Assembly: GCA_000442015.1 (NCBI GenBank)
Contig: KE560636.1
Coordinates: 1-64,000, forward strand
From: Rozella allomycis CSF55
Lineage: Eukaryota
DNA length: 64,000 nucleotides
Direction of reading: 5' to 3'
In this document: in pieces, positions 3,440 to 6,400 of the stretch
How positions within the stretch are numbered: the stretch's first letter is position 1
Layout of the letters: each line of letters begins with the position of its first letter
Translations under genes and position numbers: made by a program
The notes under the pieces: generated by a model
The model's database searches: none
Seen by the model: the letters and a program-made list of their open reading frames with translations, nothing else
Told to the model about the DNA's origin: nothing

Positions 3440-6400
3440 TTATTTGTTCATTTCTTCATCTTGAATAAAGTTTGGATTCTTTTTGATGATGACAAACCCT
3501 TCAAGAACATGAGACAGAGAAATAACTATTAAAGGATGAAAGAGAGATTACATTCTTCAGTAGCCAATTCAGCTCTTTCAGTGTGAGCTAAGAGAACAGG
3601 TGTAGTGTGAGTTTGAAACCCCGTGATAGTTTTAGGTTTGCCCGCCTGACCAACAGTGTCGATAGCCAATAGTGAAGAAGAAGAGAAAGAATTACTTGAC
3701 CCACTCTGACGGTGATTGGTTTTAGATTGTTATTTTCATCCAGTGTGATTAGAAAGCGAGGATAGATTGACAAGGCAAGAGAATATAAAAGATAATGAGA
3801 ATTGCTTGAAATAACTGAAAATAGAGAGAATAAAAGTTACTATTTTTAGAATCAGTGAAAGAAAAGAGAGTAATTAACAAACCAGCAACCGAGACTGGCG
3901 CCATTAAAGATCTATCTAGATGAAAAGGATTTAAAGATAAAGTTCCTTTGCCCATGTGAACCAAACCCTTTTAAAATTAAAGATTATTGAATTACTTGGG
4001 CTATTCTAACGATGAATAAAGCTTCAGAGTCTTTGTTGTAGTAGGAAGCCAATTGACGCAACATTTGAGCGACTCTTGCGTTGTTTGTGCCAGCAGCTAC
4101 AATCCCCAGAGCAAAGATTGAATTGTACGCGACATTTAAATCAGAGTCATGGGAATATTTAGAAAGAGTGTCGAGAATGTTATTTTTTGGATTTGAAGCA
4201 CACAACAATGAAATAGCCAATGGAACAATTTTTCTAACGTTTGGTTCACCATAATGCATCAAATGACTAAAAATTCTCAAAGACATTTCTGATCCAATTT
4301 CTTCTCCCATCGCTATAATTGAAATAGCCAAAGTAGCAAAATCTTTTCATTTTCTTTAAACTAAAATACCTTGTCCGCCTATAACAATCAAATAAAAAAA
4401 TTACCAATCTTTGATTCTTTATCATTTACTGAGTCTTTATTATCTTTGTTGTGTTAATGTGATAATGATATTACCTTGTTCCATTTGACCTTCTTTACCT
4501 TCTACAAATAATTGAGACTTGAATATCTTACCTTCTACAAATAGTTGAGACTTGTATGTCTTACCTGTTGCTTCTACTTTACCTGTTGCTTCTAATTTAC
4601 CTGTTGCTTCTACCTTCCCCTCTACTTTCCCTTCTAACCCCTCTAACCCATCAACATCACCCTCTCGCCTGGTGACGAGTTTTAACATTTCTTGAACTTT
4701 TAAAACATTTCCAGTTCCAGCATAAGCTAAAGATTCAGTAATAATTCTAGCATGGTTTCCAAATGGATGTTCAATCACTTTTAATGTTTCCAAAATAGTT
4801 TCAACCATTTCTTGTTTATTCAAAAATATTAATCCCAATCCCAACCCTAGAAATCTACAAAACGTTGACTTTTTAATTTTAATTTTCTTTTTTACTTTGA
4901 AATCATTTTCATTTCTTTCCATTATTGTTTGAAGAATTGTGCTTGTTAATTCACCATGACAAGTTCCAACAAAAATTAATCCCAAAGCCAAAACAGCAAA
5001 TGAAACTATTTTTATATTCAAACTAGAATCTGAAACAAATGGAATCAACAATTTATAAACATCTTCTCTACCAGTCCCAGCATATGAAAAACCTTTAATA
5101 AATTGATTAGAGGAAGATTACCTATAACGAATTGATAAGATGATTATTACCTATAACAAGTTACTATCTAATTTCAATTACCTAGTCCAATTATAGATGA
5201 TATTCTAATTAGTTCACTTTCATTGTCTAAATATTCACTTAAAAGTGCCAACGCTGGATCACTCTCATTCTTCACTCGCACATTCATCAATCCAATCCCC
5301 AAAATAGCCCCAGCCTTTTCATATCTCTATTTCATTCTTACTTTGATAAACTCATCATTTGAATACAAATATTTATCAATCTTTGACAATCCATTTTCCA
5401 CTTCCCACATCATTATCATCCCAATAGATGCAGACGCACTCATCATCCCATCATTCTTGTTCTTATATATCCACTCCTGCTGCTCATTCATCATCAACTT
5501 ATCAACACAAAAACAACAATTCACAAACCCATTCACTATCGTTGACGCCAAATTCTGTTTCGCACTATCCAACCCCTGCGTATTAAAATTCTCCAAATGC
5601 GACTTATAAATCTCCTCGGGTAACTTTGCTTCACTTATCTGCAACTCTTTCGCTAAATTCAAAAAATGCTCAGACAAATTATTATTATTCATTATATTCT
5701 GAATCTCCTCATCTTCTACAGTCAACCCAACTTGCTGTCGTGACAAAATATACCCAAGTTGCTTCTTCATCATTCTATCCTCACACTCCTCAAAATCCCT
5801 CTTTATCATTTCTACATCATTCAACTTCAACGCTACACCAAGAGCCTCAGGGAAACGCTTAAATCTCCTATAAATCTCATGCACTATCTTCAATATCTCT
5901 ACATCCTCTGGATACGGCATATAACTCACACACTTTTGCAAATACATACACACCCTCTCATATGTATTCTCATCAACATATTCTTTCATCTTATTAATCC
6001 CTTCAATCTCTATCAGCAAATCACACGCATCAGACTCCGCATTGTGGCTGAGAAAAAATGGAACCAATCTAATCCCTATCCCCCTCAACTCTTCAACACT
6101 CTCCTCTCTCTCAAATCTCATATTATACTCATCCTTTATCTCCATCGCCAAATGTCTATCACTACATCCTCCACCTCTTACCTCATATAATCATGTCCCC
6201 ATCCTTCTATCCCATCTCTACCACCCATCATATAGTAATACAACACTAAATTCTTTCCCTCCTCGGCAAATGTCATCGCTAACACAGACATTATCTCAGC
6301 AAACCGTCTTTTATTCTCCCCTTCTTTATATCCCTTATACTTGGCCTCCATATCCTTGAAATGCGGGCGAAGAAATTTTAAAGGCTTAGGCACAGACGTC

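Follow-up and report, generated by a model that had tools for sequence, protein, structure and literature searches.

The RPN1 gene and its 89-nt interruption

An 89-nt interruption made up of three abutting complete mini-introns was found in the Rozella allomycis gene for the proteasome subunit RPN1 (PSMD2 in human). It occupies positions 5093-5181 on the minus strand of the window, i.e., of the whole 64-kb stretch of DNA analysed in this study (Table 1). The identity of the host gene is well supported. The long exon at 5342-6154 (minus strand) matches human PSMD2 chains with an E value of about 1e-77 and shows 100% identity with Rpn1 of Rozella allomycis CSF55, a protein whose cluster has two members, RKP21880.1 (P0002, 897 aa) and EPZ36164.1 (P0122, 918 aa, on a 79-kb contig). 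P0002 is similar to solved RPN1/PSMD2 chains over the full length, with an E value of 1e-279 against human PSMD2. P0122 matches the window exon by exon in tblastn, with HSPs that stop at 5180 and resume at 5093, and it agrees with the window also in the minisatellite region of the gene, where P0002 differs; the assembly of P0122 is therefore the very probable source of the window. Across the array the two models give the same protein, and in both of them the 89 nt are modelled as a single intron.

Table 1. Coordinates of the RPN1 gene, the three-unit array with its flanking exons, and a second candidate array
Feature	Positions	Strand	Description	Evidence
Whole RPN1/PSMD2 gene	3440-6594	minus		Homology to PSMD2; public protein models
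Upstream exon	5182-5314	minus	AGAILGIGL...SSIIGL; ends in phase 1 of a Gly codon	Translation; tblastn of P0002 and P0122
Unit 1	5151-5181	minus	31 nt, GTAATT...TTATAG; preceded by exon end ...CTAG	
Unit 2	5122-5150	minus	29 nt, GTAATA...TTATAG; AG|GT contact with units 1 and 3	
Unit 3	5093-5121	minus	29 nt, GTAATC...TTAAAG; followed by exon GTTTTT...	
Downstream exon	4896-5092	minus	Finishes the Gly codon and runs to ...NENDFK	tblastn; gapless human PSMD2 alignment
Second candidate array	4499-4564	minus	Two abutting 33-nt repeats, each GTAAGA...TTTGTAGAAG	Zero-length-exon DP; AG|GT split

The four borders of the array read, in order, CTAG|GTAATT, ATAG|GTAATA, ATAG|GTAATC and AAAG|GTTTTT when looked up by coordinate. 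The two internal ATAG|GTAAT junctions (5150/5151 and 5121/5122) each juxtapose a 3' splice site to a 5' splice site, and the array as a whole lies in phase 1 within one Gly codon. The minus-strand letters match those quoted in the original prediction, which had divided the interruption into 31+29+29 nt, each piece reading GTAAT...AG and joined to the next by AG|GT with zero exon between them; an origin by tandem duplication was absent from that prediction. Unit 1 is unlike units 2 and 3 in its base make-up, being G-rich and C-poor (6 G and 1 C).

The earlier claim that the 89 nt must all go was also borne out, as the reading frame is kept by full removal only and the public models skip all 89 nt. 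Retention of at least one unit leads in seven of seven combinations to a stop codon 6-29 codons past the junction, and the spliced RPN1 product aligns to human PSMD2 with no gap across the array junction. The other homology-supported introns of RPN1 measure 26-31 nt. At 5315-5341 (minus strand), a 27-nt intron is backed by human PSMD2 homology and by one public model; the other model, EPZ36164.1, removes only 15 nt there (5327-5341) and retains the residues RYEK.

No Rfam match was found inside 5093-5181 at E values up to 1 and no stable fold was found in the array (fold z-score +1.38), so that neither Rfam nor folding points to an intron-hosted small RNA. A blastn-short search found no dispersed copies of the 89 nt in the 64-kb window, the best other match being 17 nt long with an E value of 0.06; near-identical copies at other loci, the mark of an introner-like or dispersed element, are thus absent within the 64 kb. 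A metagenome scan with the RPN1 long exon gave no close relative, and a second scan with an alignment of 14 proteins gave 80 loci with identities of at most 53%. None of the six multi-HSP loci among them has a boundary near residue 445, the other 74 of the 80 loci being single HSPs. One metatranscriptome run yielded two contigs with unlike pieces of 18-35 nt, without joints.

Intron lengths and splice signals in the window

Introns were predicted with a gene finder written for the window, which combines codon log-odds with donor and acceptor PWMs learned iteratively and a flat length prior. The census is that of a crude, unvalidated predictor whose PWM training predictions included the RPN1 introns; its least reliable entries are those at the two extremes of length, 15-21 nt and 38-45 nt. 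With intron length capped at 18-45 nt, the gene finder recovered almost every gene that Pfam had identified on 147 ORF blocks. The window is gene-dense and its predicted introns are sharply peaked, with a mode of about 27 nt. A total of 135 introns were predicted in genes scoring above 15, with 111 of them at 24-32 nt and 99 at 26-30 nt, and the latter count agrees with the earlier statement that the units have the typical intron size. The introns of the CFA20 gene, which was parsed by hand, measure 28, 30, 29 and 26 nt. Given this sharp peak at 26-30 nt, each unit of the array is a normal intron whereas the 89 nt taken together are an outlier.

The splice signals of the units were compared with those of 91 short introns. 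For the donors the mean is 5.39 and units 1, 2 and 3 score 6.2, 5.5 and 4.9; for the acceptors the mean is 4.43 and the scores are 3.7, 5.6 and 4.9. Each unit has a donor and an acceptor of average strength for the window. The 45-nt-capped gene finder splits RPN1 exactly at the array and rejoins the gene only once zero-length exons are allowed, in which case it picks 31+29+29 nt.

Little information was seen in the window introns beyond 5' GTA(A) and 3' (T/A)AG, and no positional branch-site motif was observed in them. A simple rule, which takes as acceptor the first AG lying 25 nt or more from the donor, recovers 112 of the 134 predicted acceptors. Read directly on the array, the rule pairs every donor with the AG of its own unit. 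Earlier AGs occur in unit 1 only (positions 14 and 18), with none in units 2 and 3.

Runs of the gene finder without the length cap gave many 'introns' of 40-393 nt. Those inspected were artefacts in which exons had been skipped, genes merged, or coding stretches of a multiple of three removed. A '60'-nt intron in COG2 consists of a 28-nt intron, a 45-nt exon and a 26-nt intron, and a '61'-nt intron in GDH of 30 nt of coding sequence and a 31-nt intron. A Kelch gene appeared to have a zero-length pair of 28+24 nt, which is false since the 24 nt are coding, and the '43+44' pair in an ADAM-like gene is coding sequence plus one 54-nt intron. The '150'-nt intron in APC2 is a 27-nt intron with the unusual donor GTAGTA; this intron, at 24382-24408 on the plus strand, was missed by the gene finder and the gene was split. 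A '95'-nt candidate intron was also given by an uncapped run at the 5' end of the Seipin gene.

Origin of the array

An ordinary 89-nt intron could happen to carry two AGGTAAT strings, as GTA and AG strings are plentiful in AT-rich introns. Among simulated 89-nt introns (first-order Markov, from intron interiors), 4.6% contain at least one AGGTA, but only 60 out of 2,000,000 have two AGGTA that give three pieces of 24-34 nt. Over the whole window, with units of 22-36 nt and both PWM scores of at least 3, four abutting intron pairs were counted on the minus strand, all of them in RPN1, and none on the plus strand, as against a mean of 0.075, and never more than 2, when both strands were simulated 40 times under a Markov model. 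Since the whole-length similarity of units 2 and 3 is also significant, as described below, chance resemblance is effectively refuted and the array structure is real.

Units 2 and 3 are identical at 22 of 29 bases, with a score as high reached by only two of 6555 null pairs of other window introns. TRF reports a period-29 array at 5101-5157 with 2.0 copies, 85% matches and a score of 86. These two units are therefore head-to-tail copies above background. The similarity of unit 1 to unit 2 (score 8) is reached by 507 of the 6555 null intron pairs, and that of unit 1 to unit 3 by 3194 of them, neither of which is significant. Unit 1 may have been the earlier intron at this site, or it may be an older copy. 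Tandem duplications are common in the window, and a duplication process is therefore plausible for the array. Taken alone, the anatomy and the duplication, as read from the sequence, are parts of our explanation that we regard as very probable.

A misassembled repeat, or an RPN1 pseudogene in which the 89 nt stay unspliced, is a highly improbable account of these features. RPN1 does contain a segment without an intron-ending AG (3667-3695) and a variable minisatellite, and the public models disagree in the repeat region. The copies in the array nevertheless differ by 24%, unlike an assembly duplication, and the same exon junction occurs in a second, independent assembly (P0002, on a 27.8-kb contig). 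The rest of RPN1 is that of an intact, highly conserved and essential proteasome subunit with open exons, which argues against a dead gene.

The differences between units 2 and 3 fall on none of the seven signal positions and on seven of the 22 other positions. By a hand calculation the hypergeometric probability of this distribution is about 0.11, and hence selection on the internal splice signals is not significant in this comparison.

Splicing of the array and of the longer introns

The original prediction had invoked a spliceosome restricted to introns of about 30 nt. This restriction is contradicted by two longer introns of the window, both with canonical borders and free of internal AG|GT: one measures 54 nt, and the other, which is less certain, 50 nt. 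The first (1113-1166, minus strand, GT..AG) lies in the ADAM-like gene, between the Reprolysin domain (profile matched to position 197 of 200) and the Disintegrin domain in the same frame. The gap between the two domains contains stop codons and is bridged only by the 54-nt GT..AG intron, with both flanking exons supported by Pfam domains. This intron splits into 27|27, with a midpoint that reads ...TTATG|ATAATAT... and a TG|AT border, a single base short of an acceptor on one side and of the consensus donor GTAATAT on the other. Judged from its sequence, the intron may be what is left of a two-unit array after decay, or the resemblance may be a coincidence (rough chance of about 0.03, by hand).

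The second longer intron lies in RPN1 itself, at 3646-3695 (minus strand), where the sole GT..AG solution is 50 nt long and deletes seven conserved residues. An alternative 29-nt segment (3667-3695) ends in TTG and keeps residues that align to human GQAVDVVGQ. The 50-nt form is used by EPZ36164.1, and RKP21880.1 is short of nine residues there.

As the 54-nt intron and the probable 50-nt intron have no internal AG|GT, removal in one step seems possible at about twice the modal length. The whole array might likewise be excised in one step, from the outermost donor at 5181 to the last branch site and acceptor at 5093, with the internal AG|GTAAT being undecayed relics of the duplication. Such a route would be in keeping with the single 89-nt intron of both public annotations and with the statistically unremarkable preservation of the internal signals (about 0.11, by hand). 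On the other hand, it has to pass over two acceptors and two donors, all of at least average strength and placed at the preferred spacing, and a length of 89 nt exceeds three times the mode and lies far outside the predicted length distribution. It also departs from the fungal precedent, where excision starts with the smallest definable intron according to the available text of PMC7138796. We regard one-step excision as unlikely, although it is the most serious of the alternatives.

The reading that we prefer is that of a tandem array of three self-sufficient mini-introns, with units 2 and 3 related by duplication, which is removed piece by piece; we give this statement as a whole a probability of roughly 0.6. 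Piecewise removal is, on balance, the probable major route, because of the nearest-AG rule and of the fungal precedents for consecutive and zero-length-exon splicing. At least units 2 and 3 would have arisen when a 29-nt intron and the AG|GT at its borders were duplicated in tandem. The spliceosome would pair each donor with the closest AG that can serve as acceptor, some 25-31 nt further on, and the array would be excised in up to three separate reactions. Each step would re-form a 5' splice site of the form ...TAG|GTAAT..., with every junction being a zero-length exon. From three full sets of signals and the nearest-AG rule we infer the order and the number of these steps.

The internal donors have the sequence expected of regenerated 5' splice sites, and their scores of 5.5 and 4.9 lie close to the mean given above. 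The exon, unit 1 and unit 2 all end in TAG, and for this reason the -3 to -1 context is unchanged after excision. Since TAG again precedes GTAAT after any excision, every order and combination would end in the same mRNA. An intron duplication of this kind is harmless, because each copy has its own donor and acceptor and all site combinations give the same mRNA. A more general form of the proposal, in which acceptor choice in Rozella is mainly distance-based (about 25-31 nt), introns lengthen chiefly by concatenation of whole units and piecewise removal is obligatory, is a speculative extension that we consider doubtful.

The array constitutes a natural experiment on the limits of intron length in genomes with ultra-short introns. 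A single transcript offers two options, three optimal introns of 29-31 nt or one intron of 89 nt, and all the partial splice products carry a premature stop as a marker. It is also a concrete case of a whole-intron duplication that does no harm to the protein, which bears on intron multiplication and on the origin of complex introns. Should the more general, distance-based form of the proposal hold, the array would represent zero-length-exon recursive splicing at the smallest scale known and within a coding sequence, and introns could multiply by tandem duplication in a self-correcting and effectively neutral manner.

Comparison with known systems

Ratchet points in Drosophila subdivide introns of kilobases. 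The view, part of the original prediction, that recursive splicing is described mainly for very long animal introns is too narrow in the light of two fungal cases. Zero-length-exon recursive splicing is reported for the 336-nt SPNCRNA.445 intron of S. pombe in the available part of bioRxiv 10.1101/226894, which means that zero-length exons are used in a fungus with short introns. Complex introns of Lipomyces are described in the accessible text of PMC7138796 as being excised consecutively, beginning with the smallest definable intron.

The RPN1 array resembles the Drosophila ratchet points and the S. pombe intron in having AG|GT inside the removed sequence, with removal of the upstream part regenerating a 5' splice site. 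It differs from both, which occur in long introns, in that its segments are themselves modal introns of 29-31 nt with a total of only 89 nt. Unlike the known recursive sites, the array is located in coding sequence, consists of duplicated whole introns and would impose no forced order, its internal sites being used only according to our proposal.

Fungal stwintrons and complex intervening sequences, as in Lipomyces and Pezizomycotina, are similar in comprising several U2-type introns, and RPN1 would share their consecutive removal. In a stwintron an internal intron interrupts the donor, the branch or the acceptor of an external intron, and the order of excision is forced for that reason. The RPN1 units are serial and not nested, and every one of them has an intact GTAAT and AG before any splicing. 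As no splice element is interrupted, the array is not a stwintron. By analogy, the array would work like zero-length-exon recursive splicing and like fungal complex intervening sequences. Its novelty lies in its scale, its coding location, the duplication of whole introns and the unforced order; zero-length-exon splicing and consecutive splicing as such are already known.

A tandem-duplication model of intron gain was reportedly put forward by Rogers in 1989. In the classical model an exon is duplicated and a new intron results, whereas in RPN1 an existing intron was duplicated to give abutting introns with no new exon. The two have in common that a duplication bounded by AG|GT adds spliceable sequence and leaves the protein unchanged. 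Tandem duplication is listed among the proposed mechanisms of intron gain, and small duplications are proposed as the origin of fungal complex introns, in the part of PMC7138796 that was available.

A further comparison concerns taxa with ultra-short introns. Rozella allomycis is a sister lineage of Microsporidia. In the literature searched (supplements and the Rozella genome paper, reportedly that of James et al. in 2013, aside), we found no description of abutting mini-intron arrays and no statement on the length of nuclear introns in Rozella. Nor was a report of abutting intron arrays found there for ciliates, Microsporidia, mikrocytids or dicyemids. Ultra-short-intron genomes are known from these four groups (PMC13644364 and PMC10245619, in their accessible text), and the Rozella window resembles them in the very narrow distribution of intron lengths below about 30 nt and in the weak internal signals. 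Rozella is not named among the ultra-short-intron taxa in the available part of PMC13644364. A 2026 paper on taxa with introns below 30 bp names ciliates, Microsporidia and Dicyemida, and not Rozella, in the text that was accessible, and the word 'intron' is absent from PMC5701793. In Rozella allomycis, as the window shows, introns are plentiful and their modal length is about 27 nt, which goes unmentioned in the accessible portions of the recent literature on ultra-short introns. This abundance of introns of about 27 nt accounts for errors that can be seen in the two public models of the RPN1 gene.

Other repeats and features of the window

The second candidate array (Table 1) is part of a minisatellite at 4499-4613 (minus strand) in a variable loop of RPN1, where an 18-nt repeat with 2.9 copies precedes the 33-nt repeats. 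The borders within this minisatellite are all AG|GT and in phase 1, and the public models differ in the region. The 33-nt repeats (TRF: period 33, 2.2 copies, 92% matches) have the look of complete mini-introns, GTAAGA...TTTGTAG plus AAG. They are multiples of three, free of stop codons, and annotated as coding in both P0002 and P0122. The period-33 and period-18 arrays lie about 600 nt downstream of the 89-nt array.

Several other tandem repeats were observed in the window. A repeat of 79 nt x2 (95% matches) lies inside a UCH/ubiquitin gene at 16207-16366, one of 244 nt x2 (98%) inside an FYRN/FYRC gene at 57906-58393, and one of 462 nt x2 (94%) in a DDE_Tnp_4 transposase-like region at 38873-39796. 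A 30-nt x6 repeat was found at 44239-44423, the units of which hold 18-nt pieces bounded by GT..AG.

Strand asymmetry in RPN1 (3500-6600) is extreme. The coding strand has far more G than C in the 5' two thirds, with the plus-strand GC skew falling to -0.75 in 200-nt windows; the sign of the skew flips near 4200, C exceeds G in the 3' third, and the introns share the trend. Finally, a Mic10/DUF543 domain at 22237-22662 on the plus strand is interrupted by one in-frame TGA (22480-22482), which divides it between two ORF blocks of the same frame. The Pfam profile is continuous, running to position 51 in one block and from 51 in the other, and an intron would not fit in between; the TGA may represent readthrough, an error or a pseudogene.
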